Shown here: positions 10,482-50,764 of the stretch, in pieces
How positions within the stretch are numbered: the first letter of the stretch is position 1
How the letters are laid out: each line of letters opens with the position of its first letter
Source: Myxococcota bacterium
GTDB taxonomy: Bacteria; Myxococcota_A; SURF-8
Reading direction: 5' to 3'
Length of the DNA: 64,000 nucleotides
Assembly: GCA_963674735.2 (NCBI GenBank)
Contig: CAXXQS010000002.1
Coordinates: 1,376,001 to 1,440,000 of the forward strand
Made by a program: the position numbers and the translations under genes
Notes under the pieces: model-generated
Seen by the model: only the letters and a program-made list of their open reading frames with translations
The model's database searches: none
Told to the model about the DNA's origin: nothing

Positions 10482-10496
10482 CGGGAGGATGGACGT

Positions 10497-11021: not shown

Positions 11022-11031
11022 GGAGATTACG

Positions 11032-15171: not shown

Positions 15172-15186
15172 GAACGGAGCGTTAAA

Positions 15187-15705
15187 ATGAGCAAACAGCC
15201 GAATCCATTGAAAATTGCGGCCCGCCCGATCCGTTTCGGGTTGGTTTTGGCGATGGTTCTCCTGGTAGCCATGCCGTTGTTGGCCCAAGAATCGACTCGC
15301 GCGCCGTTGTACAAGGTCGGGAATCCGGCGTCGGTGGCTGCAACAGCCGACGCGAGTTCGACCGACTCCAAAGTAACGGGCGAGGTGGAATCGCTGAAGT
15401 CGTATGAAGGTGATGTGGTTTTTGCTCTGGTGGGATGGCCGGTGGTGATTCGCATTACCGATGATACCGTTTTTGTTTCCGAATCTCTGGCCGTTTCCAA
15501 GCTTTCGGCGGCCGATGTCTTGAAAAACCGCGCCGTAACGGTCGTGCTGCGCATGGACCCGGAGCGTGGTTACCTGGCCGACAGCATTACCATTCATGAT
15601 TATGCCAAGCTGCAGCAGGTGCGCCGCGAACGCGAAGATGATGATATTCGTTACATTTTGCGGCACAAAGACTTGGGTGGATTGGAAGTCGAGAAACGGA
15701 ACTGA
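15187..15705 (+). CDS. Small secreted beta-rich protein (OB-fold/DUF5666-like; occupies the PilY2 position)
   Basis: GGAG RBS, signal peptide ending LLA|Q, pattern VTGEVES...IRITDDTVF...VTV...ADSITI; 15 bp after pilY1. Confidence 0.6.
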   Translation: MSKQPNPLKIAARPIRFGLVLAMVLLVAMPLLAQESTRAPLYKVGNPASVAATADASSTDSKVTGEVESLKSYEGDVVFALVGWPVVIRITDDTVFVSESLAVSKLSAADVLKNRAVTVVLRMDPERGYLADSITIHDYAKLQQVRREREDDDIRYILRHKDLGGLEVEKRN

Positions 15706-15832
15706 AAAGGTGGGAATTATGCGGATAGCCCGCACCATTAATAGTGACTGTCGTTATGCAGTAAGACGAACACCGTGCAGTGCGAAGAATGAAGCCGAGG
15801 GCCGCATGGCTGCAAGGCAGGGAGAAGGACCC

Positions 15833-19122: not shown

Positions 19123-22100
19123 ATGAAAGCCCCCGAGAGAGCACTTACCAGGAAGTCCCTCCTCTACGCCTTGGCGTTGATCGTCGGGTTCATGTTGCTG
19201 GCACCACAGCCGGAGGCGCAGGCTTATACGCTCTACAGTGCAAACAACTATTGGATCAGTGCCGCTCCAACCTTGGATTACAATAATAGTAATTCGACCT
19301 ACCTAGACTATTACGACCGAAACTACAACGCCTATGCCGGCGCTCGCATTGTCGCGCACACCTGCCACCAAAATGCAAAGGGGCGTGGTTTTCTTCGCTA
19401 TTATCGCCGTTATGGAAACAATACGGGGAGTTGGCAGTATAGCGATTCTTATGCCTGCCCTTCCAATGGTTCTTCGCCGCCAGGAACGACAGCCTCAAAC
19501 GGTGGGTATATTTATGAATTTTCCGATTACAACAACCTCGGCTTTGGCTCCTCGGCCACCAGCACGCAATATGCCGTTAAAATGCGGATTTACGCACGGA
19601 ATCCCAATACGGGCGGATATTATGATGGACCCCAAACTTACTACATTCGCCATCGCATCGATAACGGCTGGCCGGGTACGTCGAACCAGATCAACACTTT
19701 CTACTCCAAATGCACTGGTGCAGCCGCCAGCACAACGAATGTCGATTGTTCGCCCAATACTTGCGCGGGCAAAAACAGTTGGTTTGTCTGCAATAGTACG
19801 TGGAACTATTACGCGAGGGATTACGGTGACTATGCTTTCACATCGAGCACGGATTTCTCGCGCGGGCATCGGGTTACCAGCCTCAAAACCGGGCATGACA
19901 GCAGTTCTTATGCCAACTCCAACCCGACCACCGGTTGGCTGGCCGGTCTGGATATCACTAACCAAAATCTGGCTACCGGCCTTCGAACCATTTACATGCA
20001 TGGCTGGGGCTGGGATTCGTTTACGGCCGGCGGCGATGCGGATAAGCAGCGCCGCTTGGGTCGCCACCGCTATTACTACCGTTACGATAACAACATGCCG
20101 ACTCTGGCCCAGAAAACGGCAGGCGGTGGCCCGACGGCCGGGCGTTGGTATAACACCGGCGGGTGGGATATCAAGTGGGAGCTGGCGGATACGATTTCCA
20201 AGCCGCGCTGGGGGTTTGTAGACGGACCCACCGGGGATCTGACCTGCACGTCCTCCACGAGCTCCGGTTGTGGCGGCAATTCCGGTGCGTTCGAAATGGG
20301 GCGCACGCTCAATGAGGTTCGAAACGGCGCCTACGGCGGCATCACGCTCTATTATTCCGGCTGCGATTATTCCGGGCGGGGTTTTGGCACCCATTCAACC
20401 TATTGTCTGACCGATGGCACCTACAACGATCCCCGCAAATCGGCCACGTATTACTACGACCGAAATAACCCTTATGTCTCGGTTACCTGCAGCACGGGCA
20501 CCTGTCCGGCCAATGGCTGGGTCAATTCGGATTTCTCTGTATATTTCGATGGTAAGGATAATAGTTCGAGTACCAACGCCGGGCCGTGGAAGCTCTATTA
20601 CAGAACGCTGAGCGGCGAATATTCGAGCTTTACGGTAGACACCAGCCACTGTACCAGCACCCCTGTAACGGATTCGACCCCCTCCTATAATGAAACGGTT
20701 CGCTATACCTGGTCGGTTGGTTCAAGCTTCGGCGCGACGGGTAAAACCACCTGTGCCAGGATTTACGATGGCTCTTATGATGATTCAAATCATCAGGGCG
20801 CCCGCAGTGCCGCGAGCACCTGCAAGTTCTACAAGTATGATGGCCACAATCCCACGATCACGATGTCGAATTCCGGATCCTGCTGCGTGCCCAGCACAAG
20901 TAATTGTTACCTGGGCGATGACGGCGATAACATCACGCTGACCTTGCATGACGACGAAGAGCTCAAGCGGGTCGATTGCAACTGGACGACTTCCAGTTCA
21001 TCCTCCTATCCCAGCCAGGGCGGAGGCACGCGGGGTGCCAACTTGACGGGCCAGAATGCCACGTTCAACACCCAGTACGACGACGCCACCAGCACCGGCG
21101 AAGGCACGCGCTACTTGTGGTGCAAGGTTTGGGACACCACCGGTCGGTCCGCTACAGTCAGTGGCTACTTCAAGCTCGACCGCAATCCGCCGACGACCTC
21201 GGTGACCTCGAATTACCCTTATTACACGAATGCGAGCCAGAGTAACATCTCGTGGAAAAACGGCACTACGCCGACCTTCTACGGCAATGCCAGCAAGGGA
21301 ACCAACGATAGCGCTATTCAGAAATATCAGTGGGAACTCAATGAGACGACAAGCTCTGAACTAAGTTACACCGGCAGTTCGCCGATGGCCAGTTGGGCTA
21401 TTAGCCCCAGCCCGGGCAATCTGGATCGCCAGGGCCGCAACGATTTCAAATTCAAAACGCGCAATTCGGTGTGCACCGCGCACGAAAGCCATGCCTGGAG
21501 CGGCTGGTCCACCATCTATATCTGGCGCGATACGCTGGGTCCCGATAGACCGGGTCGACCCACAACTCCCGGCGGTCGCTACACCTCGGACAACACCCCC
21601 ACCTTTACCTTTACGCCGACTCAGGGTGATTGTGTGCCGAGTTCGGCCACCTCAACCAGTTGCGGCAGCTACACGCGAAACGCCAGCACCTACAGCTCGT
21701 TGTATTCGGGAATCAAAGATTCGAATATGTACCGCTATTATTTGAGGGAAACTACGGGCGGTTCAAACCTTTCCAACAACTATTTCACTTGCACGTCCAC
21801 CTCGTCCTGTTCGTTTACTCCCAGTTATACCCTGCAAACCGAACGAGACTATGTGTTGTTGCTGCGTGTGTATGACAAAGCCGGGAAATACGGGAACGCC
21901 GACAACACGACAGACGCCGTTACGGGTAGCAGCTCGACCTGGGTTTACTTTACCTACGATCACTCGGCTCCGAACACGCTTTCGGCCGTGCCAAGCGCCG
22001 TCGCGGATGCCAATGTGAGCACCAATCGCACCTATTATTCAAGTGGTACTTCGGTTAACGTGACCACCAAGGCGCGGGATGCCCTGGGTTGGGCACCGCT

Positions 22101-25100: not shown

Positions 25101-28100
25101 CAAGCACATGTGGATTTTCTGTCGCGACAGTTCCTACAACATCAGTTGCGATCCGAAAACCGAAACCTGTGCGGCGCAAGACTACGCCAAGATCGATACC
25201 AAGGCTCCGGCGATTCCGGCGCAGAACATTCATGTGAAAGACAGCTCGCACCCGCTGCAGACGAACCAGAAGAACGCGAAGATCACTTGGGGTAGCTCCT
25301 ACGATACCTACGGTGAATGTAGCGGTAGCGGCACCTGTGGCGGTGGCACCTGCATCAGCCAATTCTGTTCACCGGCGGTCGCCAGTGGATTGGTGGGCTA
25401 TCAGGCTCGTTACAAGCTCGATACGGCTTCAACCTGGAAACCGACTGAAAACGTTTTCAATCTGACCGCCTACCCTTATCCGCAGGATATGATTTGGGAT
25501 CCGGTTTATAACTTCGAGCCGGACGGCCACTGGCAGATCCAGGTCAAAGCGGTCGACAAGCTGTATCAATCTTCCGAAGTGGACCACGCCAATCCGGCCG
25601 GTTCTACCTGGCAGCAGGTTTCCGTCCTGGTCGACACGACGGGTCCGCAACCTTACAACCCCGTGGATGGCGCGGCGATCACGCTTTACGAACCGAACTC
25701 AAGCTGTGGGACGAGTTTCTACACGCACGCGAGCAAAAAAGTCACGGCTTCCAATGCGATCGATATCGCCATTAACGCCAAAGACGCCTTGGATCCGGAT
25801 GGCCAGGGAACGAATTGGCGGGAGGCGACCGCCACCGTTATGGGATTCTCCGTGGTCGCGGCCACGGCGGATTGCCCGCAAAACACGGCGGTTGATTATC
25901 GTTACATCTTCGAAGCGGATGAATGCTTCCAGGGCGTGGATGGGGGTGGCCAGCAGTGGAGCAATGGCTTCCCGATCGTAAGTGGCACCCCGGCAACCAC
26001 GGTCGAAAAGAAGATCTGCGGGCATTTCCGCGATTGGATCAACAACTACTCGCCGGCGGTTCGCAATGATGCGGATTTCGTGGCTCTCGTAACTTACGAC
26101 CGCGAAGGTCCCTATGCCTCCGGTCTGCCCAGCACCGACGAGGATGTGCACAATACGCCCAAGCCCAACTGGACTTGGACGGCCTCGACCGGTGACAAGG
26201 CGCGTGCTCTGGCGAGCACGGGCGACAGCTGTCCGGGCGCTCCGTATCGTCTGCGTTACTGGATGGGACCGGTGGGCGGCGAAACGGCCGGACCGTATTA
26301 TTCCAAATCCTTGACCACCAACCAGATGACGAGCATCGATTATAACACGGGTCAGGAACTGATCCCCGGTGTGTGGAACGCCGTCGTGGAAGTATACGAT
26401 GCGAAATGCTACAAGACCGACTCGACTGCGGGCGAAACCGAGTACGATACTTCTGTGTCTTCGGATAACAAGGTTTCAATCTTAAGCCCGGCCGATAACA
26501 GCAACAAGTTTACCAACAAAGCGGCGGTGGATCTGTCGATTTCGACGGTCGATACCGATATCGAGAAATACGTCACCTGGAACTGCAACAACGGGGAGTC
26601 GACCCCGCTTCTGGGCACTTGGACCCCCTACAGCAGCGATGGTTCCATCGGTGGCTGGACACTCGATGTCAGCGGCATCTCCACGCCGAAGGGAACCGTC
26701 AAGGTTTGTTATCGCTTCCTCGATGCGGCGGGCAACATCACCTGCGATCCCGTTGCCAGTCCTTCTTGCGATCCGTCTCACGGCCTCGATTTCGCGCCGC
26801 AGATGGATACGATCATTTACGACAAGTGGGCCCCGACCAACGACGGCGATGCTATCGCCGTGGCGTCTTTAAGTGACGGACCCGACCCCTTCTACACGAA
26901 TCAGTCTTCGGTTGCGGTAACGCTCTCCGCCAAGGACGGCAATTCGGATGAGTGGACGTCCCTGCGCTATGCGATCGCCAATGCCGCCGACGGCAGCAGC
27001 CCGGCGAATCCCGCTTCCAGTGTTGGTAGTTGGCAGGCCTTTACGTCGCCGCTGGATATCGCCAGTCATTCGCTGGGTGTTTCCGGCGACGCTTGCGATG
27101 CCAACGGGCAGCGCGATGTCTATGTTTGGTTTGCCGATCAGGGTGCCTTGATTCCGGGCGACGGACCGACCGAATACAACCGGACACCAAACGGCTCGCC
27201 TTACAAAGACTCCATTTTCTTCGATAACTGCATGCCGCAGCCGGTGGATACCTCGGTGCCGCACATCGTCAAAGTCGGCGGGATCGACCCGAACGCCACC
27301 GATGATGCGACGCCCGAATGGACCTGGCCGGCTTTCGCCGATCCGGGTTCGGCGAGTTCTACCGGCGCGGGCTTGTGCACCGCTGCGCTGTGCAATACGG
27401 CCAGCATCAAGGGTACCTACCAGATCTGCTGGAGCAATTACGAAAGCAGTTGCGCATGGTCGACGGATGCACCGTATTTCCGCGATACCAACAGCTACAC
27501 CCACACGAGCGCCCTGAATCCGGGCGTGTGGTATTTCCATGTTCGCGCCTATGACCGCGCCGGGAATGTGTCCGACACCTTGGTCGGTTCCGCCACGGTC
27601 GTGGATGTGCAAAAACCGAGCAAGCCAATCGTTTCCGCGTTTGACGACGATCCGCTTAACCAGCATCTTGCCTCGGCGCGTCTCGTGATCGATGCCGCAG
27701 ATGGCAACGACGGCAGTGCGGTGGATTACGCCATCAAGGTGGCCAATGTTTCCAATGGCGCTGGTGGAACGATGTGGGTCGGTGACAGCGGTGTTTTGGA
27801 AACCGATCCCGTCTGGCAGAGCCGTAACACCTGGAACGGCGATGGCAGCGGTGTGATCATCAAGGAACTGGAAGACAGCAAGCTCTACATCTTCACCTTG
27901 ATTGCGAGCTTCGATCAGGGCGGCGAGTATCCGTCCGATGACTTCGCCTCCGTGCGGGTGAACGACCGTACGCCGATTCTTCCCCCGACGCCCACGGCTT
28001 CGGCGGATGTCGGAAACAATCAGGTTGATCTCTCCGTCAGCTACAAAGATCCTACCAGTACGCGCTTCCCGGCGGCTGTTTGGGATGCGAATGCGGAACG

Positions 28101-31100
28101 CTATAACGCGCTGCGTCAAGAGATGCTTACCACTAGTGGCGATTTCGGTGCCGGTGACGACACCTTCCCGCTACGCAATGGTATTGCTTACATTCCGCAC
28201 AGCGTTTCCGGTTGGGGTGAAGATACCTTCCTGTCGATTGAGCCATACAAGATGGCCTACTTCACACCGAACTGGGAGCATCGTGACGGTGACGGCTACA
28301 ATACGGCGGGTCATCCGTCCGTGTTGCCGGGTATCGGTTACGGCATCGAGTTCGATCCCGTCCGCAACCTGATTTACTCGGTTTCCTCGTCCAGTCCGCA
28401 GTTGTATGCTTACACGTATAATTCGTTGACGAGCAGCTGGAGTGGCACCACGATTACCGGTTCTATTCCAACTTGTATCGATCTGGCCTACGACGGGAAC
28501 TTCCTCTATTGTATGGGGAACCACAACGGCACCATTTCACGCTTCAAGCTTTCCGGTGCCGCCGGATCGCAAACGATGGCGGCTCAGGGGACATTCAGTC
28601 CCGGCACCGCTCTGGCCTACGACGGTTTGGCTGTTGCCAACGGCTTGCTCTATGTCGGTGGAAGAGGCGACACGGATCGCACGGTCACGGTGTATCGTAC
28701 CGGCGACTGGTCGGATGATTCGACCGATCTGCCGACAAGCGCTGCCAGCTTCTCCGTGTCATCCGATGCCAATGCCAATATCGGCACCTTGTTGAGTGAT
28801 GGCCGCTTCCTTTACACGCACGCCGTCGAACTCAGCGGTGGGGTGCCGACGGATTCTCACAATCGGGTATACGGGCACGCGCTGCTCAACCAGATGGCCT
28901 TTTTCCAGGCTAATCCGAATGAGGACTCGCTCGACGCCGCGCGGGCGGAATACGCTCCCTTGGGTGGTGTAATCGATCGCTTCGATGACAGCGATTTCAC
29001 CGATCTCTGGAATTTGTCGAGTGGTAACTTCAGCCAGGGCTCCGGGTTTGTGGCCGCAACAGGTACGACCAACATGTTGCTTGCCAAAACCACGCCTCCA
29101 ACGCGTTACTTTGCCATTGAAGCCGATGTAATGGATACCGCTTCCATCGCCGATGGCGAGGTGGGTCTGGTTTACTCGGCCGCCAATACGAACAATCGTT
29201 TCCAGTGCGGCTTCAACGTCAATCAAGACGTCAGCCCGATCACGTATAGTGCACGTATTTACCGACGCAGTACGGCCAACGGAACGGTCGAGGTCGGCAG
29301 TCGTGACGACCTGACATTCGCCAAGGGTGCCTGGTATCATCTCAAAGTGGTGGTAACAGACCGTGATCATACTTGTTATATCAATGGCGTGAAGGTTGCG
29401 TCTCTCCAGGGTGATTCAACCTTGCCCGGCGGCGCGCCGCTTTCAGTCGGTGTCTTCGCCGATCAAGACGGGGCGCGTTTCAACAACTTCCGTCTGACCC
29501 CGCTACAGGGTGATGTGTCCGGTTCCAACTGGACGTATGCTTCGACGGATGCCCAGGATATTACGCCGCCTACCGATATCACCAGTGCCACCTCCACCCA
29601 TTCTCCGGCGATCAACGTTTGGAGTAACGTGGATGAGATTTCGGTGAACTGGGATGAGCCCGATTCACAGGGAACGGCTTACAGCTTTACGTCGTCCGCT
29701 CTGGATGGTGCTCATAACTTCTCGAATGGTTTCGCCAACGGCACCTTCGATGGTGGCGATGGCGCAAAGGCCTATAGCTGGTATCGCAACACCGCTTTGA
29801 CTTCGACGCACGACACAAGCTGCACCAATGCCGGTTGTTCGCGGCGCGTGGTGGGCACTGAAACTTTCAGCGGTATTTCGATGGCGGGTAAAACCATCTC
29901 CGGCTATGGGCGGTATATCCGCTCCCGTGCCGATGGAACCGCATATATCGGTTTAATCCAGCGTGTGCCGGTGATGACCAAAGACAGCAGCGATTTCGCT
30001 TTCGAGTTTGATTATTACTGCGAGTCGGGCACGATCAATCTGCAGAGTGGCAAAAATGGATGGCGAATGCGCTTTATCCGGGAAGATGGCAATGCCACCC
30101 CATACGATTCTACAGCTGTTGCCTATCTGTCGAATGGAACGACAGCGATCAAGGATCTGAACCAGTTTGAATGTGTGGCCAACGAAACCGGCCATGTGGT
30201 TGCCAAGGTTTCAACTCCCAGTAGCATGGCGAATCATTACTATCGTCTACAAGTTTATGACTGGGCTTTGACTTCCGGCAATTACCCCACCGATCCCTAC
30301 GTTTTCCAGGGGATCGTTCTCGACAACTTCACACTGCGTGAGGTGGATTCTGCGACCATCGAAACGCTGATGGCCGAGTACCTCGTGACGGCCACCTGGA
30401 GCGATGGCGGCAGCAGCCAAGTTTACCAATACACCCGGCCAAACAACACGGCCGGTCGCGATTTGGTGATTCCGCCCAACGGCGATCAGATCGCCAGTGG
30501 CGAGTGGGTGGTAACGGTTGCGGGTAAAGATGCAGCCGGAAACTGGAATGAAAACGACTACGAACTGAATAAATTCCTGGTCGATAACACCAAACCGGCC
30601 ACTCCGGAGATCAGTTGTAATGTCGATAAGGCGGACTGGTCGAATGCGACGTCCGCGACTTGTAGCTGGGATAAGACCACTGGGCCGAGTCCGGGAACTT
30701 ACTACACCTGTTACAGCAACTCTTCCAATCCGGCGGATTGCAATACCTGGTCCTCGCAGTCGGATACCAGTGCCAGTGTTGCCGTTGCGTTGACTGAAGG
30801 TATCGAGGGTAAATCTTATCTGCATGTCTATGCCATGGATACCGGTTCTCCGGATCCCGGCGTCGATCCGCCGGGCATCGATACCTACGAGTTCTGGATC
30901 GATCAGACTAAACCCACCGCTCCGACGGTGTCGTGTTCGTGTCCCGACTCGGTATCGATCGGTGACGGCGCGGACCCGGACGCTGTCGACGAGTGGTATT
31001 GCATGAACGATGACAAGAACATCAGTTGTGCTTGGAATGATCTTCCGCAGCCGCCAACCTCGCCGCGCAAATTCGGATCGTGTCTGTATCAGGTGCGCAC

Positions 31101-34100
31101 GGAGGACTTGGGTGCCGGTCAGGAAATGGAAGATTTCGATTGTAACGCGGCGGTGAAGTGTACACTCAATTACGTTCTCTCCACCCCGGCGAAAGCGTTG
31201 GGAGATACGCTTGTCAATGGTTCCGGTACCTGGTGTTTCTATGCGGGCAATTCCGATACCGGTGGTTTCTCAGACGTGTCTTCCTATAAGTTCCATATCG
31301 ATATTACTCCGCCCGAGCGGCCGAGTAACGAATGGGCTCCGTGGGTCATCAACGGCGAAGGCGCCAAGGTCGATTACACGGCCGAAGAGAGACCGACCTG
31401 GGTATGGCAGCCTGCAATCGATCAGCATTCCGGTCTTGCCGGTGGTACGGGTCGTTACGACATCATGTGGTCGCTTGATGGCTGCGGGAACTACTCGGCC
31501 CAGAATTCCGCTGACGCGGCTACCGAAACCTACACACATACCAGTGACTTGACCGTCAATGTGAAGTATTGGGGTTGGGTGCGGGCGTTTGATTTGGTTG
31601 ACAACTATGCCGATTCGGAATGTGGCGAAATCTTCGTGGTTGGTATGGAAGATCCCGCACCTCCGGCCGTTTCGGCGCTGATTGATCCGGTTCTGCAATC
31701 CGAAGCTGGTAAGATCAAGCTGGTTATCGATAACACGGGTAATGTCCAACCCAACATCATGTTTGCGGTGATCGAAAACAAGGCGACCGGTGGAACTTAT
31801 CTCCGTGGGGATGGGACGCTCGGTGCGGCCTATGTCGATCCGAAAACCGGCGATCCGGCGCTTATCAACGAGATCTGGCGCACTTACGACGCGAGTGGTT
31901 CGGCGGTGCATTGGAACGGTACGAATGGTCTCATCATAGACGGAATCGATTTCGGTAGCGGAGAAGTGCCGCTTTACGATGGGACGGAATTCGAGTTCCA
32001 GGTGACCAGTTATTACCCGGATACGATGCATGGTCCCGGAACGGCTTCCCAGGTTGTCACTTTCGATCGTACGCAACCCAAGCCGGTTGTCGCCACTATT
32101 GGTGTACGGCCCGATACGGATCCGGATAGTGGTCAGACCCTCAACCGCATGGTCGTGGGCTATGAACACGGTGGCGTGTTTATCGAAGCGGAAGATGCCT
32201 TCAATGTGGCTACTTCAACAGCCACTTTGGGGACCAGCTCGGTTGACAACGGAGATGACTACACGGCTTCCGGTGGTTCGTTCATGGAGTTGTCAGCGGC
32301 CGGTTCGGCGCTTGAGTTCAAGTTCTACGCTGAAAAAACCGCCCGCTACTATCTGCATACGCTTGGTTATGCCATTGGTGGCGGCGACGACGAATTTTAC
32401 GTGCATTTGGATGGCAGCGGTTCGGCCTTGGGTGATAGTGCGATCGATCCGCCCGACGGCAAGCCGGGTTACGGTTGGTCAAGCGGATACTCGCTGGGCA
32501 CCCAGAACCTGGAACAGGGCTGGCATACGGTTACGTTGAAGAAGAAGCATCCGGCGAAAATCGATGCCGTGTGGATTTCTCAAACACGTCTGACCGATCC
32601 TGCCGACCGGCGTCTGCTGTCCTTCAACCATGGAGAATTCCAGAAGGTTACACGTAGTTCCACTCTCGCCAGTGGGTACGTGCCTATCGAAGGTGTCGAG
32701 GATGGCTTTGGTCGTACCGACCTGGGTGTCGGGTCCGATTATGTTTCCTTCATCGGCAGCGGCGAAACCTGGGGTATCACCAATGGTGAAGCCCACGACG
32801 ACAAAAATCAGAATCTGGCTACGGCTATCTTAACCAGCGACAGTTACGACCATTTCACGGCTGAAGTCGACACTCGGATCTTGTCTACCAGCAATGGTGG
32901 AGCGGGGTTGGTCGTACGCCAGGCCGGTGGAAGTTACTACATTTTCCAAATTCTCTTCCAATCGGGCGGCAAGGTCATCTTGAACCGCGACAATCAGTAT
33001 CCGGCTGCACCGTTCAAAGAGAAGACGGTCGCGCTTTCTGCGGGTGATTGGTATCGCCTGAAGGTCGTAGCGCGCGGCGCCGAGTTGAAGTTCTATGTCA
33101 ACGACGCGATGCAGTTTAATGTTTTCGACGACACGGTTAGCAGTGTTGCGGACTTCAGCGGGCGAGTCGGGTTGTATTCCCATCCGCGTACCGGTACGGG
33201 AAACCATTACGCCTACTTCGACAATTTCCGCGTGTTGCCGTTCTCCACTCCGGGTGGAGTGGTGGATAACGATGCCGTCGATCTCGGGGCTCCGACAACG
33301 CCGACAGCGCTTGCGGGCAATCCGACGACGCCGCCTGTCGGGGCGACGAACGAAACGGAATTGACGGTTCGTTGGAACGCCGCCAATGACACGACGAATA
33401 CCGACACGTATTACTACGTGACGGAAATGGTCGATCTGGAGGGCAACGAAGAAAATCTGCTCGGTAATGGCGGTTTCGAGCTGGGAGATGCAGGGTGGAC
33501 CAATAGTTCTCCCGCTCAGAACCCGATTCTGGAATCGGGCTGGGCGAGCGGTGAAACCTACGAGGGCGACTGGGCGGCCAGCTTCGCGGCGTCCGGTACG
33601 ATAAGCTATGTGGTCAGCAGTGTTTCGATCCCGAATGGCGGCCAACAGTTTTTCGCCAGCGGTATGTTGTCGGCGATTTCGTCCGGGCTTGAAGTGCAGG
33701 TTTGGGCGCGCACGACCGGAACCACTGGTTGGAATGAAGCTCAGCATAAGATTTTCGGTGAAGGTCTCACCGACTTTACGGGCAAATGGACCGAGGTGGG
33801 TCGTGGATTCCGCATCGCCAACACTTCCGGCAGTGCGCGCAATTACGATCTGATGTTCCGCCTCAGTAACTCGGGTAGTGTGGGGCTGGCGGATGACCTC
33901 AAGATTGTCAAAGGCCAGCAGGGCACCATCTACACCGGTGTGGGCGGCTACGACGTTTGGTGGTTGCCGGAGGGATTGACTGAAGTGGTGGGCGGCAAGC
34001 GCCAGCCTGTCAGTGGTGTTACCGCAGAGGAGATCGGTGTAACCGCTCTAGCCAGCACCTATACGATTCCGCAGAATGCCCAAAACGAATATCAGGACGG

Positions 34101-37100
34101 AAACTGGTATGCGTTTACTCAAACCTTCGATCGCGCCGGTGCGACTCCGAACCGCAGCGCCGAGTGGCTGGCCTTCGGTCCTTTCGAAGTGGATACGCGC
34201 GATCCGGTAGTGACACTCGGCGACCCGCGCATTATGGTCGATAACGGAAGTGGGACGTTGGTCGATAGCGACTTTACGCATACTCCCAATGTTTTCCTGC
34301 ATTTCCGTGTTGAAGACCTGAGTGCTTACATGGTCAAGGACGACAGCCAGATTACGGAAGGCGAGGCCGATCCTGCCTCGACTCAGTGGATTGTGCCGTC
34401 GCTGGCCGATTGCACCAAGCAAACCAGCGGAACGACGGATATCTGGACCTGCGATATTCCGCATACGTTGTCGGGGACCGACCAGGACGATTATACTGTC
34501 TATATGCGGTTCATGGATGACGTGGGCAATGTTACCGACAACTACAGCGATACGATCACGCACGATAGCGAAGGCCCGGATCCGGTTTCGTTGACGATCG
34601 GTGAGGATGTTGACGGAACCTTCTCCGAACTCGAATTCACCAACCGCCTCGAAAACATCGGCGGTGTCTGGAAGGCTTTGGCCGACCTCGATCTGCAGGC
34701 GACGGATAACTGGCCGCCGATCACGATGGATCTCAGCAACACCAATGGCAGCTGGCCCAATAGCTGGCAGTCGCTGAGTTCACCGTACCTCGAGTGGGAG
34801 CTGGATGTGAGCAGCACCACCACGCCGGTTGAAGAGACCGTGTCGGTATATGCCCGTTTCCGCGATGGTAGCGGAATCGAGCAAAACCAGAGTAGTGCCT
34901 CTGATTCCATCAAGTTCGATACCCGCGGTCCGCAGGTGTGTAACCTGGAGTTCATGAGCGGGACGAACGATAACGGCACTTTGCGTTCCAATACCAAGTC
35001 CGTGGCGGTTCGACTGGTTGTTGAAGACTGGTGGAGCCCGTGGAAATATGCATTGTCTCGCACGACCAGTACGGGGACGATTACCGAAATCTTCACCTCT
35101 CCCCTCGATACCTCCTGGGATCTGGTCCCCTCTACCGACAACACGCTTTACGATGAGCAGAAGTCGGTTTATCTGAAGTGCTGGGATGGTGGCGACAACC
35201 ACGATGCGACCAACTCCGTCGATCAGAAGAGCATCGTCTACGATAACCGCCCGCCCAAGGCGCGCTATGTTCAGGCTTGGCCGCAGGTCGAGTACCCGAC
35301 CGGGAACTTGTATACCGCCTCGCGCGATATCGATATCCGCCTGGTGGTTGAAGACAGCAACATCACCGGCAATGCCTGGCTGGAACATTGGTTCCCGGTT
35401 CAGGTGCGGTTGTCCAACGACGGTGTTTTCGATGGTCAGGATGATCTTGGCGGGACATTTGTTGAACATGCCGAGGAACTGACCTGGTATAGCTTGGGCA
35501 ATCCCTATAGCTATGATGGCAGCAGCCAGTTGATTCCGCTTACCGTTCCGACTACTTGGCGTCTAACCAACGGTGACGACACCAAGACGGTTTACATGAA
35601 CTTGAAGGATGGCGGTGGCAATGAATGGAGTGTGGTTGGAACTCTGCCGACCGACACCATCAAGCTCGATACCGCCGGTCCGACCGGTGAGATGGATGTG
35701 GAAGACCTGGATGGGTATATCAATACCGAAAACGGTCAGGTTCGTATCATCCTTTCGAATGTGGTGGAACAGTGGCATCAGGTACAGATGCAGGTGCGCC
35801 ACGAACATCGGACAAGCGGTGGAGCTATCGATTATTCAGGCGATTGGACCTGGGAGAAGGTCTGCTCCTCTGCCCAGAAGACCAGCGACGGCTGGTGCCC
35901 GGTTAATTACGATTTCAATACCTGGCAGCTCGGGAAAGATGTTGATGGAACTTGGACCGTTCTGCAGGGTGACTGGACCGTCTATGTCCGTCTGCGTGAC
36001 GGCGGCAAGAACATCAATGTCATCGGCTCCGAAACCGTCTACCATTCCACCGAAGCGCCCGAGTGCAGCCTCGTGATCAATGGTGGGGCGGAATGGACCA
36101 ACGACCCGAACGTGGATCTGCTGGTCACGAATGTTTGTGATTCCGGAACCGACGACTGCGAGTCGGTCGGTAAAACGCCGGTTTCCTATACGGCTAAAAA
36201 CGTGCCGGGCGATTACTCGGGTCCGTACTGGGACTTCACCAACCCCTCCACCACGAAAGTCGATTGGCCGATCCTGACGGATCGACCCGACCAGACCGAT
36301 GGTGAGAAGATCGTTTACGCCTACTGCAAAAATGCGGCGAACAACATTTCGTCGGCGGCGTTGAGTTCGATCAAGCTGGACACCTATGCCCCGGTACCGC
36401 CGACAACGAGCGGCACGCCTCAATCGCCGACACCGGATCGGGCGTATTGCAACAACGATCCGGCTCCAACCTGGACCTGGAATGCGTGGTCCGATAACAG
36501 TGGCTCGACGATCGGTTCCTCGGGTATCGACTACTATGTGGTTTATTGGGGAACAACGGCCTTCAGTTCCTGTGCGGGCTGTAGCGACACGGTGGATGCC
36601 GACACGCGGGCTAGTTCATACCAATACACCAATGCGGTCGACGACATGACGGATACCGTCGGTGGCACCACTTGGTATTTCTGGGTGAAGGCGTTCGATA
36701 AAGCCGGAAATGAATCGGAAGTGACCTCCGGTTCCGGTTCGATCGTCATCGATACCATCCCGCCGAGCTTGGCCAGCGCCTGGATGACTATTTTCGATGA
36801 TAACCGTGCTTGGTATAACAAGTACTACCCGCTTACTGTCCGATTGGATGGCGTGGTTGGTGCGTATCAGATGCTGGTGGATAGCGAGCATGATCCCACT
36901 CAGCCGCTCAACCTCTACCCCGATGATGTCAGTGGCTCGGCTCCTTGGGTCGGTTACAATCAGATTATCAGCTTCATCAGGATCGAACCGGACGGTGAAG
37001 ACGAGCATCGTTGGATTTCCATGGTGTTCCGTGATCGTGCAGGCAACGTAACCAACACCTACATTGCCGATGATATCGGTATCGATGTGTCCAAACCTGT

Positions 37101-40100
37101 GTGGTCGGGTGCACCTACCTGCGGCACGTCGCCGACCAACGATAACACCCCGACCTGTGACTGGACCGGTTTGGTTGAGGATACCGTGTCGGGCTTCCAC
37201 GATTCGGCGCCGTTTGTGTTGCGCTGGGAGAAGGGCTCGAAGAGCATTACGGTCACCACCACCGACTTCACTTACTCGCTGAGCGACATCCCGGCTGGTA
37301 CGGGGTTGGGCGATGGTGAGTGGACCATGTGGGTGACGGCTTACGATAAGGCCAACAACAACGAAGCGTCGAGTCAGGTCACTTTTACCGTCGATACGGA
37401 ACCGCCTGCGGGTGAATTGACCATTACCGATGCGGTGAGCTACGACGGTCATGAGACGATCTACACGCGCTTTGCCGATGTGGATCTGTCGATCCCGTTG
37501 ACCAGTGAAGGCAGCGGCTTCGATCCGGCCGATTACCAGATGAAGTTGTGGAACGCAGGCGAGAGTGCTCCCGCCTATGCGGCCTACGAAGATACCAAGA
37601 GCGACTGGCCGCTGTTCGATTCGGCGACGGCCGGTGAGAAGACCATTCAGGTCTGTTTCAGTGATTTGGCGAATAACGAGAGCGAATGTCCGCCGGTTTT
37701 GGCGAATACGCCCGATCACATTGCGACGATTTACTACGATCCCACTCCGCCGCCGGCCGTGACGGCTCTGGCTGCGGATGATACCTTCGCTTCTCCGGAC
37801 GGGCCGAGTACGGCCGATCGTACGCCGTCCTGGTCCTGGTCGTGGTCCAATGACGATGCCACCGGTGCCTCCGGCGGACGTGTTATCAACCGCTATCGCC
37901 TGGAATGGAAGAAAGTCGATCGTAACGACGATAACGTGATTCTTGAAGGCCCGTTCCCGACGGCCTCCGAAGATCCGATGTTTACCGACGGCACCAGCTT
38001 CCAGCATGTGGATGAGCTGTCGAAGGGTAAATGGATCATGACGGCCTGGGTGTACGACAACGCAGGCAACGAGTCGGCGGCGGAGACGGCCACCGTGTTT
38101 ATCGAGGCCATTTCGATCCCGGCTCGCCCGATCGTTACACGCGGTGCGTTGTATCCGCTGAACAGCGGGATGGCGGCTGCGTACTTGACTCTGGATGTGG
38201 ATAGCGAAAATCCGATCAATACGCTTTACAGTGTGTACGAAGAAACGACCGGCAAATATCTCAAGGCCGACGGAACCTTGAGTGGCGATGAAGTCGGTCC
38301 TGAATCGGGCGACCCCAGCGTGCCCAGTATTTGGCGTACCATCAACGAATGGAATCCGGCCGGTCAGCCGCCCTTCATCATTCGCGGTCTGGAAAACGGC
38401 AAGGTTTACCGGTTCAAGGCCAAAGCCTTCTACACCGGTTTGAACAGCTCCGATTTCGGAGAGGCCATGCCGTTTGTGCCGGGCGATCATATCGCCACGA
38501 AGGCTGCGAACTTGGCGGCGACGACGGTCAACCATGCAAACGGGTACCCCGACCACGTGGAACTGTCTTGGAACTTCGATTGGAATGCCTTCAGTCAGGC
38601 TGCAACTGTTTACGATGCACCGCTTGACGCCGGCTATGAACAGTTTGTTGTCAACCAGGATCTGGCTACGGGTGGTGTAACGGTTGTTTCTTATGCGGAT
38701 AACAACCAGGTTACGGATGGTGTCACGTCGGTGATTCTCAACCGCGGTGATTCCATTGTTCTTCCCGATGCGAGTGTGACTCCGGCCTATACCTTGGAAC
38801 CGAAAACGAAGATCGTCGGTTCCGGTCCCTTCACGGCGAAGGGCAATGGTCCGGATGTCGGCGGCATGCTGGTTCCGGGGGCGTATGCCGATACGGCCTT
38901 CGCTTCGATCGCGGCGCGCAATAGTGATGTCGTCATTACGGTGTTGGCCTTGGAAGAAGGTACTGATATCGGGGTCTATGAGAACAACGGTGTGTTGAAG
39001 GATTCCGCCAATTTGGGACGCGATGACTTCTATCGCTTCGACAACCTTGGATTGGGTAAAGACTCGACGGTCAGCGTTTTGGGTAACAAGCCTTTCCTGG
39101 CTTACTACACGGCCACCGGGTCGGCGGCGGATGATTTCTATCCCATGCCGCCGTTGGCCACGGAACTTTACGGCGTTCCCAGTTCCAGCTTCCGTCTGGC
39201 TTGCCCGACCGCCGGGACAACCGGAACGATTTACAAATCCGATGGCAGTTCGACCCCGTTCAGCTGCGGTCCTACCAGTTCCGTCAGCGATACGGGAGCT
39301 TCTTTGGGTGCCGGTCCGGCTTATCGGGTTGTCTCGGACAACTATCCGATCGCGGGTCTTGGCTATGCGGACAGTTCCGGTGGTGAAGGTGAATCGCTCA
39401 TTCCCAAACGCTTCATGGGTAATGCGTTTACGGTTGCCGAAGGGACGATATATGTTGCCTTGGCGCTACAGGAACAAGGGGCTACCGTCACGGTTTACGA
39501 TCAAGATGGAAATGATCGTGGCTTGACGCCGACCGCAACGGAGTCGAGTTGCAGCGGTTGTCCGGGCTATGCGCTTCTGGGTGCCGTGAATGCGGGTGAC
39601 CTGATCGTTACGTCATCGGCTGCCATGGCCTACTACGACAGTGCATCCGGTGGTTATGAAACCGGTATTGCCGCGTGGCCGATGTGGACCAATACCATCC
39701 AGCGGGCCGATGGCTCGGGTGATGGGATGCTGACCTCGATGGGAGGTTGGTTCGACGACTTCAGCACGGCTTCCATGTCCAACTACAGCTCTGCTTTCAG
39801 CAGCGGTTTCGCGATCGGCGGCGGGCAGTTGGTGGACAACATTTCCGGTAATAAGCTTGGTTTGGTGTACGACGCCAACAGCGGTTCCGACTATATCGTC
39901 GAAGCGGATGTCTTCAATGGCGACGGACCGGATTCCGGTCTGGTTGGACTGCTGTTCCGCTACGCAAGTGCAAGCGATTACTATCTCTTCGGAATCAGTT
40001 CGGAGTCCGGTGTGCAAGGTGCGCGCCTGCTTCTGCGTCAAAATGGTGTGGCGAGCTCGGCTGAAGCTTCGCTCGTCGACCTGCCCCTGCAACTGGAGTC

Positions 40101-43100
40101 GAACCGCTGGTACCATCTGAAGGTGGTGGCCAAAGGTAAACGATTCCGTTGTTATGTGGGTGATTACCTGGTTATCGATCACTTCGATAAGAACGCTCTG
40201 GCAAGTGGAAAAACCGGTGTGTTCTCGGGTGAAAACTCGGCACAGGTTGTTTTCGATAACTTCAGTGTGGCTCCGATTTCCGATGCCGCGGCTTATGCCG
40301 CCGATGATGCCCACGACGTGATGCCGCCGAACGCGGTGGACGAGGGCAACCTTGGCATCACCTCGGGACAGACCCAGAGCGATCCGCCCACCACCATTTC
40401 TTGGTACAACGATCCGGTGGTCGGTTTGTCGTGGAATACGCCTTCCGACGTTGCGACGGATTACACCTTCGTGCAGGATGTGGCGGATCCGGACGGCAAC
40501 TTCAACAACGGTTTCGAGAACGGTGGCTTTGAGCTGGCAATTTCGGCTGATAACTGGGGTAATGAAGATAGCGATTGCTCCGATGGCAAGTGTCATCTGC
40601 GGACCCTCGATCTCGATGGAAATCCCGCCAGCTTCGCGGGCTCGTCGAATTATGCCTGGCGCGTGAAGACCGATGGCAATGTGCCGATCCCGGTCATGGT
40701 GCAACAGGCACCCGATCTGTCAGCGACGAATACGAGCTTCCTCTTCGAGTTTGCGTACCGTTGTGTTGAAGCGACCGGCTCGAACGGTTGGCAGTTCTAT
40801 TTCGCCAATAATGCTCAGTCCGTATTCCTGCGTCCCAGTGGAACGGCGGTTCTGGCCAGTGGTGAACGACTGGCCAAGGATATGTCCAACTTCACCTGCG
40901 ATGCGGATGAAGAGGGCGTGTTCCGTGCCGTTTTGTCTCGCAATGCGTCGGTTGACGATTTCCAGTTCTTCCTGGTCGAGCATCCGGCAGCGGGTGCTCA
41001 AGAAATTCTGCTTGATAACCTGCGGTTACGCAAAGTCGAGCAGACGTCGGTTGTTTCGGGCCTGGACGGATACGCGTTTGTGTGCGGGACGGATACCGTT
41101 AACAATTGGACCAAGAACAAGGAAGAAACGGTTACGTCGGCGAATTGCGATTTCTCGGCCAGCCAGGGCGGCAACAACTTCATTCACCTGCGTACGGTTG
41201 ATAACCGTGGCAACTGGGATGAAGAAGAAGATGTCGTGACTTTGGGACCGTTCTACATCGATATCGAAGCGCCTGATGCTCCGGGTGAGCCGGACACCGA
41301 GCGCGACCCGATGAACGAGCCGCGACCGACTTGGTCTTGGACGCGACCCGCCGATAATCCGGCGCTTGATGCTTCGGGCTTGGATGCGGCGCATACTTAC
41401 ACGGTTTACTGGTCGTTGGACCCGAACGCCGACGAAGCGACGCTACGTTCGGCCGATCAGTATGACGAAATCACCGATATGCCGGATACGCGACCCGGTT
41501 ACGCGGATCACTCGATTTACACGATTCCGGAAACCAAACCGGGGCTTACCCATACGTCGGGTGAGAGTGCGACGTGGCATTTCTGGGTTTACGCCATCGA
41601 TAAAGCGGGCAATGTTTCCGATCGTTCCGTCGGGTCGGTTGAAATCGATTTGATGGGTTGCGAGATGCCCGACACCGATGCCGTGGTGTTGGAAGATGGG
41701 GCCGAATATACCCCGAACCAGGCGGCCAAGGTTGTCGTCGCATCGAGCGGGACGTCCTGTTACTGGATCGGTCTCAGCAATACGCCGGTTATGCCGGATT
41801 ACGAAGATTTCAGTGCTTCCGACGGCAGTGGCCGCTGGTTCGACTTGCGAACCTTGACGCCTGCCGATACCGTGTTGAATTGGGATCTGGATACGGGCTT
41901 GACCAATACGGATGACGGCATGCGTACCGTGTATGTGTGGGTCCGTGACACGGCTTACAATGTCGAGGGTCCGAAATCGGATTCGACTTACCTCGACCGG
42001 ATCAAGCCGAGTACGCCGGGTAAACCGATTGCGACGAGCGAACCGGTGAATCCGAGCGATCCGTGGCCTGAGATCAACCCGAACTCGGATACGACCCCGT
42101 TGTGGCGTTGGGTGGCATCGACGGATAACCTTTCCGGTATTCGCGATGTGAACGGATACGAGTTGCAGTGGGATACGGATGTCAACTTCAGTAGTCCCGT
42201 GTCGCAGCTTTTGGATCCGGAAGAACTGCGCGACATCCAGGGTGTCTCGAACAGCATCTACAACCATCCGAGTGAGGAAGCGAAACAGCTTTCCTACGAT
42301 CCGTACAGCCTCGTCAACAAGACTTGGTACATGCGTGTACGGTCTTTCGATAATGTAGATCATGCGAGTGACTGGTCGGAACCGATCGGTAGTATCACGG
42401 CTCAGGTCACGATCGATATCACGTGGCCGGAGGCGGCTTTCACGATCGACGATGGGGCGGAAATTACCTCGAACCGGCGCGTTACGTTGGATGTAACGAA
42501 CGCGACGGATCTGTGGCAACCCATCACGTTTGCAGTGGCCAACACCGACAATCCGTTGAGCTTCGATTACACGTATCCCGCTAATGCGGAGATTACCAAC
42601 TGGGATCTGACGTCGAGCTTGCCGGATTACGGAACTCCGGGATTCGATCCGCCGGACGGCGAATATGAAGTCTACATGCGATTCCGCGATGGTGGCTTGA
42701 CTCCGACGCCGCAGGATGTGTTGGAAAGCACCAAGCAGGTTATCATTCTCGATACCCACGGTCCCGACTGTAACGGTGACGACGATAGTGGCCTGATTGC
42801 GGCGCGTTATCATGAGTCCGGTTATGGTTTGGAGATGTTCTGGGACGAGCCGAGTGATCCTTATTCGGCGGTCGATCATGTCTACCTGGAAGTCAGTGTA
42901 AACGGTGGAACCTACACAACGCCATCTACCGTTCCTAGCGGTAACCTGGCTGCGGACAGCACCGGTTACTATGACTATGGCTTGGCTCAGGGTTCCAGCT
43001 ACCAGTATCGTTACAAGTGCTACGACGATCTGGGTAACTCGTCCGACTTTGTTTATAGCGAAGTCCTGGTACCCTCCGATACGACGGCTCCCGCGACGCC

Positions 43101-46100
43101 GGTCAACTTCACATGGCGAAGCGAGATTGATACTCCGTCGAGCAACCCCGATGTTCAGGGTTCCGTGAAGTTGAGCCTGATTTGGGAGAATGTGACGGAT
43201 GTGGATCTGTCTCACTACAATGTTTACGGCTCCATGGTTCCCACGGACCTGACCAACCGTCTGGTGGCGGCCGGTTGCGGTCTCTCGATGGGGTCGGGTG
43301 CTGTCACCTCGCCATGCAGTTTGGCCGTGGATGGCAACGGCACCACTTACTTCGAGTTGGATCAGCCCGGTTACGATATGGCCGAATGGCTGCTCGACTC
43401 GTCCGAGCATCTGGGTAAAGTGCGGGTGCGCTTCTACGACGACGACAACCGTATCTTCAAGCGCGAACAGATTCGTATGTACACCGGCGTGAGCGACTTC
43501 ATTCGCCTGTCGCCTGACGGCTTGCTCGAGGATATCGTCGATGGATTCGCGTGGCGGGCCGACCGCAGCCAGATGAGCTTCCCGGTACCTTACGATGCCG
43601 GTTCGGCATTGCGAGTGGCCGCGCTGTTCGACGGTATTACCGAGGCGCAGATCAGCTCGACCGACGACAAGGTTCGGATCGTGGAAATCGAGGCCTTCGG
43701 TTCGCGTCTCAATATTTCCGATATCCAGCCCGCTTCCGATGGCGGAGACCCGGATTACCCGGACACCAAGTTCGAGTGGACCGTGACCGGCATGGAAGAG
43801 TGGCATTTCGCCGTCGATTCGGTGGATACCGCGAACAACGCTTCGGAGCATTCGAACCCGATCGTCAGTATTCAGGCGATCGATTCCTCGCCTCCGTACG
43901 CTCCGGTCATTTCGGCCGCCAAATTCGGCGAGCCGTCCGAAACGGTGGCTGAAGGAACTTGGTACGGTTTCGATGATGTGACCTTCGGCTGGACCTCCAG
44001 CGACAAAGAAGGTACGCCGATCGTCAACTACCGTTGGTATTTCGATGCTCCGGGTGCCGAGTGCACATCGGGCAACTACGACACCAACGGGAATTGCCAT
44101 GGTTTGACCATCTCTTACGATCAGATGGACATCCCCGATTGCGTCAGTTCGGTTCAGCCTTGGCGTTTCTACGTGCAGGCGCAAAACGATGTCGGTTTGT
44201 GGTCCGCTTGGAGTTACTTCGAGATCAGCATCGAAACGCGCGAACCGCTGGTCTTGAATCTGACGGCCCCCGACTTCGACGATTTGCCTGTCGTGACGCC
44301 TCCGTATTCCAACGATACGTGGGAAAACAACGACGCTCCGTTCTTTGTTTGGGCCACGGATCCGGATACGGTATCGGGTATTCAAGGTTATGTCTGGGAA
44401 TTCATTCCCGAACCGAGTGTCGGTTACGACCCGACAACCTGGACGCCTGCGGATCCGAACAACATCGAATCCTATAGTGCCAATCCGCTTCGTGAAGACT
44501 TCACGGCGGTTGCCGACGGGCGTCACTGGTTCCACATTCAAGCGGTTTCGATTGCGGGTGTTGTAGGCCCGGCCAGTCATTACCTGGTGAAGATCGATAC
44601 GGCGCCGAAATACCTCGACATCTTGCTGGTGGATCAGCAAACGACGGAAAGTGTCTGGTATTCCTACGACAGTGTGGATGAGATCAGATGGCACTCGCAG
44701 GCGCTCTCCGGTATTCACAGCTTCACCTGGCAGTTCGACCAAACTCCGGGTAGTGCCTTCTCCAGTTTCGGAGCCGAAGCGGAAAGCGTTTCCGTCCTTG
44801 GATCTGAGGATGTTGAAGAAGTGGAAAGCGCCTACGATCTGCCGTGGGATGTGAGCGACAATCCCAGCACGTTCCCCGATAGCGGTGTGTGGACCTTCCA
44901 CTTGCAGGCCACGGCCAATTCGGGAGCGACCAGCAACGTTCTGCACCGCGACATACAGGTGGATCTCGGACCGACAACGCCGGTCTTCAACGGGACACTC
45001 TCCAGCGAGAGCCCGGATGACACGGCGGATCCGAGTGACGAGTTGTGGATCAACGAGTCGCAGCCTGTTACGGTTTGGAACGTCAGTTCCTTGTCCGGTA
45101 TCGAAAAAGTTCTCGTTCTGGTTACCCAGGATGCGGGCGAAGTGCCGACCGAATCGACACCGGGTGTTGTGGTGATCAACGATGCCGATGATGGCGTGGC
45201 TGACGGTATCGTGGCCAATACCTACCAGACTCCGGTGATACCCAGCGGTATCTGGTATGTGATCGTGCGCGCCCAGAACCGGGCCGTACCGGCCGTGTGG
45301 AGCCAGGCGGCAGCCCGCGAGTATAACGTCGATACCGGCCCGACGCTGCCGGAAGTGACGGCGGATCCGCATGCGGATGAATCCGTCTGGTATGCGGAAG
45401 CTCTCGATGAGACGACGCTCAGTTTCTGGGCGGCGGCCTTCTCCGGCGTTTCGAAATTCCAGTACACCTGGGGTCGCGATGAAACGTTGCCGACCACGCC
45501 GACTTGGACGGACATTGCGGTTGATGGCGGCGACATCGATGCGACCTGGACGGCGGGTCCGGATTCCCCGGAACCGCTCGACTTGCCGCGTTACAAGCAG
45601 ACCTTGGATCGCTCGGATCTTACTCCGGGAATCTGGTATCTGCATGTCCGTGCCGTCAACGGCATCAGCGTGCCGGGACAGGTGAAACGATTCAGCATCC
45701 ACATGAATGAGGAAGCGCGGATCGAAGATGTGTCGGTTGGTCTGGATCCCGTCAAGACGGATGCCAGTGAAACTCAGGTGACGACGGTTGAAATCTACGA
45801 TTACAACACGGCGGCCAACATCAAGAAGGTGCATCTGGCGATTGACGCGTTGAATTACGATTCCAATCCGACCGGTGACGCGGTCAAGCGCGGATACTTC
45901 ACGTGGTCGCCGACTGAAGGCTTTACGAAGCTGGCCGGAAACGGCGGCGATCATGTGTTGCTGAGCGGATCGGTGGTTGATCCCAAGCCCACCGATGCCG
46001 ACTACAATACGGCCACGACTCTGGTCGTGCAATTCAAGTGGCTGCTACTCTCCACCTATGGAGATACGCAGGCGAATCAGGTGAAGGTGATCGTGGAGGA

Positions 46101-50651: not shown

Positions 50652-50683
50652 AGAGGGTGCCTTTCGGGGCACCCTCTTTTTTT
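50652..50683 (+). terminator. Rho-independent terminator closing the pilus/giant-protein unit
   Basis: AGAGGGTGCC-T-TTCG-G-GGCACCCTCT stem with a UUCG loop, followed by a T run, 26 nt after the stop codon. Confidence 0.9.
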
Positions 50684-50764
50684 AAACCGGATACAGTCGG
50701 ACATGGCCTGGAAGCGCGGTTTCTGCTAAGCTGGTTTCAGGGAAATGATCAAATGGAGTCGAAC

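Follow-up and report, generated by a model that had tools for sequence, protein, structure and literature searches.

The 64,000-nucleotide (nt) stretch of DNA analysed here (the window; positions 1,376,001 to 1,440,000 of contig CAXXQS010000002.1 in the Myxococcota bacterium assembly GCA_963674735.2) carries a giant open reading frame (ORF) on its forward strand, a single frame at 18910-50625 that runs for 10,571 codons without a stop (10,571 amino acids, aa) and encodes a protein of about 10,500 residues. Analysis of this protein reveals three copies of one composite module, each with a different domain, here called the cargo, at the same place within it, and comparison with related genomes shows that each cargo type keeps its position along the chain. 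The comparison covered the order, which is represented by 10 genomes in our collection; the window's own genome is designated G000.

The order of domains within a module was read as an immunoglobulin-like (Ig) domain, an FN3 header (H), the insert or cargo (K), a concanavalin A-like (ConA-like) domain of the PF06439 type (C), an FN3/Ig-like piece followed by a cysteine-containing beta-sandwich (together block B) and a trailing Ig-like domain (I), all encoded on the plus strand. Module 1 is preceded at 27238-27597 by an Ig-like domain, identified by internal BLASTP and a weak Big_13 match, that forms part of the duplicated unit. Its header lies at 27598-27930 (aa 2897-3007), its cargo at 28003-28902 (aa 3032-3331), where a short low-confidence linker leads into a five-bladed-type beta-propeller, its ConA-like domain at 28963-29508 (aa 3352-3533), its block B at 29548-30345 (aa 3547-3812), in which an FN3/Ig-like linker is followed by the sandwich (NGTFD ... 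LDNF), and its trailing Ig-like domain at 30400-30597 (aa 3831-3896). Module 2 comprises a header at 31636-32034 (aa 4243-4375), a CBM6/35-like beta-sandwich cargo (FIEAEDAF ... DAVWI) at 32047-32694 (aa 4380-4595), a ConA-like domain at 32689-33246 (aa 4594-4779) and a shorter, more divergent block B at 33271-33912 (aa 4788-5001). Module 3 comprises a header at 38101-38448 (aa 6398-6513), a cargo of about four beta-sandwich repeats of about 90 aa, IgGFc_binding-like, at 38626-39705 (aa 6573-6932), a ConA-like domain at 39742-40281 (aa 6945-7124), a block B at 40306-41037 (aa 7133-7376) and a trailing Ig-like domain at 41071-41274 (aa 7388-7455). The headers were placed by a hidden Markov model (HMM) map and by comparison of the header profile with the PDB, the third block B by the same map, and the trailing domains by HMM matches of the trailing-Ig type.

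The triplication emerges directly from a self-comparison by BLASTP among overlapping 300-aa pieces of the giant protein, which gave 43 off-diagonal matches, six of them colinear between the three stretches. Modules 1 and 3 match at aa 3468-3750 and 7060-7325 (E 4e-22) and at aa 2797-2995 and 6301-6502 (E 1e-14), modules 2 and 3 at aa 4707-4941 and 7060-7294 (E 8e-15) and at aa 4157-4349 and 6301-6497 (E 3e-13), and modules 1 and 2 at aa 2777-2967 and 4137-4311 (E 4e-12) and at aa 3468-3617 and 4707-4860 (E 9e-6). The copies were also split into their blocks and compared by Smith-Waterman alignment, each against 100 shuffles, and all nine shared-block comparisons scored above the best shuffle, with z values of 7.1-19.0 for header pairs, 5.3-19.5 for ConA pairs and 4.9-38.7 for pairs of block B, those of the divergent module 2 copy being 4.9 and 11.2. 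By the same measure the three cargo pairs had no similarity (z 0.6-1.6), and the trailing Ig pairs (z 0.3-3.3) were not significant when taken alone. A three-way alignment of the copies retained the invariant columns P..P.V, L...L.ID, W.....WN..G....II, WY.LKVV, F.NF and NG.F, so that the motifs by which the first-pass annotation had recognised a recurring super-module with differing cargo, those of the header, the ConA-like domain and the NG.F region, do recur in all three copies. The shared domain order that it had described also stands, but the unit takes in the Ig domain before the header and starts about 120 aa earlier than first noted. A six-frame translation of the own genome found the H, K, C and B blocks confined to the giant gene.

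Among the shared blocks, the header is an FN3 domain by profile comparison: a profile of 19 headers from seven genomes matched titin FN3 (E 1.5e-8 and 1.3e-5) as well as Ihog FN3 (E 3e-4), FN3 proteins making up most of the 20 PDB rows. A second piece that had been read as an FN3 start, immediately before the cargo, did not hold up and is modelled as two strands and a helix at low confidence (predicted local distance difference test, pLDDT, below 50). The ConA-like block was compared with PF06439 (3keto-disac_hyd, formerly DUF1080; gathering cut-off 26.8 bits), and the earlier description of a ConA/LamG-like domain is borne out above the cut-off in copy 1 (27.5 bits, with Laminin_G_3 at 26.8 bits) and copy 2 (41.1-42.2 bits); copy 3 falls below it (18.3 bits) but shares homology with the other two copies (z 17.5 and 19.5). 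In block B the FN3/Ig-like piece is followed by a putative sandwich with four nearly invariant cysteines (C91, C96, C153 and C198), and the label CBM4/9-like, initially given to this last block, found no sequence support in Pfam or the PDB. None of 14 block B members matched CBM_4_9 or any other Pfam family at E ≤ 0.1, its profile had no carbohydrate-binding module (CBM) among its PDB matches, and hhalign detected no relation to the CBM6-like cargo. A language-model feature search of the Atlas lists CBM_4_9 clusters at 0.89-0.90 for block B of copy 3, so that a CBM4/9 identity is at present a lead from that search.

The three cargos have three different folds, a propeller, a CBM6-like sandwich and an IgGFc_binding-like array, and no common fold underlies them. 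HMM boundaries placed K1b at aa 3142-3331, K2 at aa 4380-4595 and K3 at aa 6573-6932, within about 10 aa of where the cargos had been drawn by eye. A model of cargo 1 was built from nine aligned orthologous pieces (pLDDT 65.6; predicted template modelling score, pTM, 0.73), and it superposes on solved propellers, with at least 500 PDB matches at E ≤ 0.001 in Foldseek and beta-propellers in 50 of the 50 matches listed, in agreement with its first description as propeller-like blades. For cargo 2, a CBM6-like nature is probable from weak but consistent sequence matches, and this is how far the earlier CBM6/35-like reading carries. Against Pfam CBM_6 the domain scored 17.6 bits (E 0.005-0.02), under the cut-off of 28.9 bits; a profile of seven orthologues matched CBM6E (8j3x/8j3y, E 1.2e-3), MiXBM (7ehg, E 4.4e-3) and CBM6 (1uxz, E 0.019) in the PDB, these CBM6-type matches sharing profile positions 45-155 (110 positions) and ranking below spurious designer-repeat rows. 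Searches of the PDB with single sequences gave Kelch at E 0.11 for cargo 1, nothing for cargo 2, noise for cargo 3 and nothing for block B.

Cargo 3 was modelled with AlphaFold2 from ten sequences (pLDDT 72.8, pTM 0.74) as an all-beta domain over residues 63-410 of the model. Its two halves are alike by hhalign (E 4.5e-6), and this internal repeat makes it an array of about four sandwiches of about 90 aa; it also carries a nearly invariant cysteine pair (C252 and C273). No convincing structure match was found in the PDB (Foldseek, TM ≤ 0.19), and a profile search of the same database gave rows at chance level. The IgGFc_binding-like assignment made at first sight is retained by way of an orthologue, G003, whose module-1 domain of this type matches PF17517 and is 41% identical to the window's cargo 3 (E 2e-58), and membership of cargo 3 in this family is therefore transitive; a language-model search of the Atlas adds a lead in which 23 of 30 matches agree with IgGFc_binding. 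A word-index homologue search with cargo 3 returned nothing among proteins of near length, the longer length class lying outside that search, and a scan of genome contigs with the cargo 3 protein returned no relatives. Among predicted viral structures (BFVD) the cargo 3 model had a sole strong match, FirrV-1-C4 of Feldmannia irregularis virus a (TMq 0.65, E 1e-16), on which the whole domain superposed; all other rows had TM ≤ 0.2.

The conservation of the slot content was investigated by mapping the block HMMs on the orthologues, six of which read through all three modules (G004, G001, G003, P0001, G008 and G006). All six show the order H-K1-C-B, H-K2-C-B, H-K3-C-B, and G007 shows the first two units before its contig ends; in every orthologue, as far as it was read, the propeller occupies the first position, the CBM6-like domain the second and the IgGFc_binding-like domain the third. 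This positional order is mirrored in a tree of 19 ConA domains, which group by position and not by genome: module 1 from seven genomes forms one clade (95/93, 100% of bootstrap trees), and modules 2 and 3 likewise group by position within the family. It follows from this grouping that the module had been triplicated and its cargos assigned before the order diverged; no trace was seen of continuing cargo swaps or of concerted evolution.

An exception to the fixed content occurs in module 1 of G001 (L014), G003 (L015) and P0001, where an extra IgGFc_binding-type domain of about 350 aa lies between K1a and K1b; it shares 41-43% identity with cargo 3 of the window (E 1e-59 to 1e-74). According to the model, the site would be the loop between propeller blades 1 and 2, which makes the arrangement a predicted domain within a domain. 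The nested domain is absent in the window's genome, G004, G008, G006 and G007. In the tree of IgGFc_binding-type domains the nested copies come together in a single group (70/89, 62% of bootstrap trees), nine of the ten inner branches being otherwise open; the tree fits both one gain of the domain and an ancient presence followed by losses. The slot has accepted a further domain at least once.

Two further loci hold related headers with other content. In G007 (L018, G007:C28; a minus-strand frame, translated residues 787-1452) a fourth header precedes the module that normally comes first, and it leads straight into a ConA-like stretch (PF22237, E 0.001) and then a sandwich ending IDDF.V, with none of the three cargos; this unit may be an "empty" form of the module. 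The own genome also contains a second ORF of 3,757 aa (G000:C1:650774-662044, L029) with a divergent FN3 header, a weak match in the ConA range and a C-terminal FGE-sulfatase domain (E 2.7e-25). ORFs of about 2,700-3,200 aa resembling it match in G001-G005 and G008, and together with it they possibly constitute a smaller paralogous family.

The first-pass annotation had interpreted the modules as a duplicated display cassette with an exchangeable slot, of which the duplication stands, a composite cassette having been copied twice, as does one nested insertion, but cargo is fixed by position in all six read-through orthologues. The stronger version of that idea, in which specificity domains would be exchanged, within and between genes and on a short evolutionary time scale, at a hotspot between header and ConA domain, draws on the IgGFc_binding-type domain inside the module-1 propeller of three orthologues and on the fourth header of G007 and the header of the 3,757-aa paralogue, both of which precede content other than these cargos. 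It sits poorly with a cargo type that is position-fixed in all orthologues read, with the grouping of ConA domains by position and with the nested copies, which group together instead of each joining its own genome's module-3 copy and so argue for one old event. Moreover, in a search of 1.84 billion representative proteins with a profile of the three copies, no representative outside the family carried the full module with a new cargo among the best 150 of 3,370 matches, a scan of metagenome contigs with the ConA and block B alignment had no relatives, and a scan with the three-copy alignment gave five loci, all with lone ConA domains. We consider active exchange quite improbable.

The first description of cassettes spaced along an Ig/FN3-rich protein is supported by header-to-header intervals that are conserved among orthologues, at 1,171-1,658 aa between the first and second headers and 1,831-2,168 aa between the second and third. 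Such roughly conserved spacing would also be expected if the modules were purely architectural, serving as stiff joints or spacing elements in a fibre of surface-layer type, with no ligand of their own. Spacing alone, however, hardly explains why three different lectin-type or interaction folds are kept position-specifically across the order, and we regard this explanation as very unlikely indeed.

The distribution of the module was found to be narrow. The profile search of representative proteins gave its 3,370 matches at E ≤ 1e-3, and 128 of the best 150 cover the ConA part alone, making the PF06439-type block the one widespread part of the module; within these best 150, the wider module beyond ConA was present in P0001, P0004, P0006, P0033 and P0050, all of the same family. 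In a set of 41 genomes surrounding the own one, all nine of the same family or order match, and of 31 same-phylum genomes nine match in the ConA range only and 22 match nothing. The orthologous frames are themselves giant, open over 9,713 aa in G004, 10,504 aa in G001, 10,110 aa in G003, 11,166 aa in G006 and 8,938 aa in G008; the locus of G007 is cut by a contig end, and those of G002, G005 and G009 are fragmented. An assembly artefact or low-complexity repeat was considered as the origin of the giant frame and ruled out, the copies being 27-31% identical and the frame being open in the orthologues too. The giant protein family, with its candidate signal peptide, three putative heads, FGE-like C-terminus and constant position beside PilY1, is lineage-restricted. 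A literature search, in which no query could name the lineage, found no paper on it.

The two ends of the giant protein differ in character from its middle. At the N-terminus, translation probably does not begin at the listed TTG, and the sequence points to the ATG at 19123 (codon 72) as the likely start. From there a candidate Sec-type signal peptide, read from the translation by eye, is encoded at 19123-19224 on the plus strand (aa 72-105), ending ...PEAQA before YT; the segment, MKAPERALTRKSLLYALALIVGFMLLAPQPEAQA, then YT, combines a basic n-region, a hydrophobic core and an AxA-like end. At the C-terminus, an FGE-sulfatase-like domain is encoded at 49411-50622 on the plus strand (PF03781, E 1e-29) and is retained in the giant orthologues of G004, G003, G001 and G006. 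Outside the three modules, a region at about aa 8100-8270 (window 43200-43700), ending ...VRIVEIEAFG, looks by eye to be of discoidin or galactose-binding type, and Pfam had no match there at E ≤ 0.01.

The upstream neighbourhood connects the giant gene with type IV pilus (T4P) genes. The interval 3398-19018 of the window holds pilB, pilT, pilC, two N-methyl prepilin genes, a PilY1-like gene of 1,408 aa (10945-15171, plus strand; Pfam T4P_PilY1) and, directly upstream of the giant gene, an ORF of 1,150 aa with no clear family (15566-19018). The PilB protein is 66-71% identical to that of metagenome-assembled genomes labelled Myxococcota or Deltaproteobacteria. The PilY1-like gene is the only PilY1 match in its genome, where nine T2SSE-type ATPase genes are present, and in every contiguous orthologous locus (G003, G004, G001, G008, G006 and G007) a PilY1 gene lies upstream of the giant orthologue at the expected distance. 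On the downstream side, a gene for an S41 (CtpA-like) peptidase at 50657-52054 starts 32 nt past the giant gene's stop; its candidacy as a dedicated processing protease was dropped, its orthologues being located elsewhere in other genomes and the adjacency being specific to the own genome.

Based on these findings, we think it rather likely that the giant protein forms a long fibre outside the cell, bearing three non-equivalent heads, probably glycan- or surface-binding as judged from their folds. Under this model an ancestral composite module would have been copied twice, long before the present species diverged, within what would be a secreted, Ig/FN3-rich protein of about 10,500 residues, each copy coming to hold a different insert at the same place. 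Each module would combine two or three lectin-type folds, giving three heads at fixed distances along the fibre, which would end in an FGE-sulfatase-like domain of C-type-lectin fold and would be made together with the type IV pilus tip genes. The cysteine pairs of block B and K3, together with the signal-peptide-like start, are hints in the sequence of an extracytoplasmic location.

Several observations weigh against this interpretation. The giant protein is mostly dark to Pfam, which recognises FGE-sulfatase, PF06439 and scattered weak Ig/FN3 matches (Big_13, fn3, Big_3_2 and Y_Y_Y), and the notion of a fibre consequently draws on weak Ig/FN3 matches and internal repeats. For the cargos, the best structural matches of the cargo 1 propeller are enzymes, glutaminyl cyclases at 11-12% identity; cargo 2 stays below the CBM_6 cut-off, with one of seven orthologous domains matching at E ≤ 0.1; and PF17517 is reached by one of ten cargo 3 family members, the G003 module-1 copy (33.6 bits, E 3.2e-8; cut-off 25.6), the window's own cargo 3 having no Pfam match at E ≤ 1. 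A chain of about 10,500 residues would also have to cross an outer membrane. In addition, PF06439 has a characterised hydrolase member, BT2157, described in PMC8121099 as a small periplasmic hydrolase of a sugar catabolic operon that cleaves 3-keto-trehalose, and the ConA domains could therefore be enzymes instead of lectins.

This last point opens the way to the main rival, an enzyme scaffold, in which the PF06439 domains act as glycoside or 3-keto-glycoside hydrolases and the propeller as a cyclase- or lactonase-like enzyme in a multi-enzyme surface array degrading polysaccharide or the cell wall of prey. Its appeal lies in the hydrolysis of 3-keto-trehalose by BT2157, in the resemblance of the PF06439 family to endo-1,3-1,4-beta-glucanases that is described in the same source (PMC8121099), in the cyclase-type neighbours of the propeller together with a weak Lactonase match (E 0.068), and in giant proteins of Omnitrophota that lie beside loci like those of the type II secretion system (T2SS) and T4P and for which prey adhesion and wall digestion are proposed in 10.1101/2023.11.21.568195. 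The Pfam search, however, covered the giant protein tile by tile without a match to any family of glycoside hydrolases, lyases or peptidases, and PF06439 is common in multidomain surface proteins, as the predominance of matches to that part alone among the best 150 representatives indicates. An enzyme scaffold appears unlikely, and a fibre with binding heads is the preferred interpretation.

A more specific proposal concerns the pilus genes. In this uncultured order the giant protein might serve specifically as a partner of the machinery at the tip of type IV pili, either exported or displayed via the upstream pilus system or forming a matrix or prey-surface fibre that a PilY1-tipped pilus grips; we offer this tentatively and rate it as rather unlikely. 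If it were true, three fixed heads would read three different surface glycans at set distances, and the nested propeller/IgGFc_binding head would be a natural example of domain-in-domain retargeting. The broader significance lies in how such proteins grow: giant bacterial surface proteins are mostly unannotated, and this gene offers a clean, datable case in which two further copies arose from a composite module of about 1,000 aa, the different inserts were kept for the whole history of the order, and one domain-in-domain event followed later. The adjacency of PilY1 suggests a connection, not studied before, between type IV pili and a giant fibre of adhesin type in bacteria resembling myxobacteria. 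Further work is merited by the nested domain, the strictness with which position is conserved and the connection with the pilus; the three cargo domains present themselves as ready-made constructs for binding assays.

Compared with known systems, the individual domains appear here in unusual settings. The characterised PF06439 member BT2157 is small and periplasmic as described in PMC8121099, whereas the giant Ig-rich protein here contains three such ConA domains amid other lectin-like folds; for PF17517 IgGFc_binding, the distinguishing point is its placement within a loop of a beta-propeller, seen in three orthologues. At the level of the whole protein, the Omnitrophota giants offer one parallel, since their genes too are directly preceded by a conserved T2SS/T4P-type set, and their CBM-like beta-sandwich repeats were found by structure prediction alone and given a proposed role in adhesion. 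They belong to another phylum, however, and are described with many transmembrane regions, SecA-like domains and lengths of 30,000-85,000 aa (10.1101/2023.11.21.568195). No sequence relation to them was found in the search of representative proteins, where, within the best 150 matches, the full module occurred in its own lineage alone.

RTX adhesins with several ligand-binding domains appear to be the closest counterpart in working principle. According to PMC12077191, they carry several different ligand-binding domains that emerge from a repeat fibre, as in a 5,047-residue Aeromonas hydrophila adhesin with three, and the RTX adhesin of Marinomonas primoryensis reaches 1.5 MDa (PMC5550230). As these accounts describe them, the likeness covers very long proteins of Ig-like repeats, a Gram-negative-type cell and several different putative ligand-binding domains, with three heads and head diversity as the functional point in both. 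The differences are considerable nonetheless. The giant protein has a Sec-like N-terminal signal, as read by eye, in place of a C-terminal signal for the type I secretion system, and a Pfam search of aa 6901-10571 (E ≤ 0.1) and of 400-aa tiles (E ≤ 0.01) found no RTX/HemolysinCabind repeats. Its putative heads are spread over the middle 27-70% of the chain and not clustered at a distal tip, each of them is a duplicated composite module with a ConA-like domain, its C-terminus is FGE-sulfatase-like, and its gene is tied to a PilY1/type IV pilus locus. From its domain architecture, the giant protein would accordingly take its place with the modular giant adhesin-like proteins, as a new variant among them.

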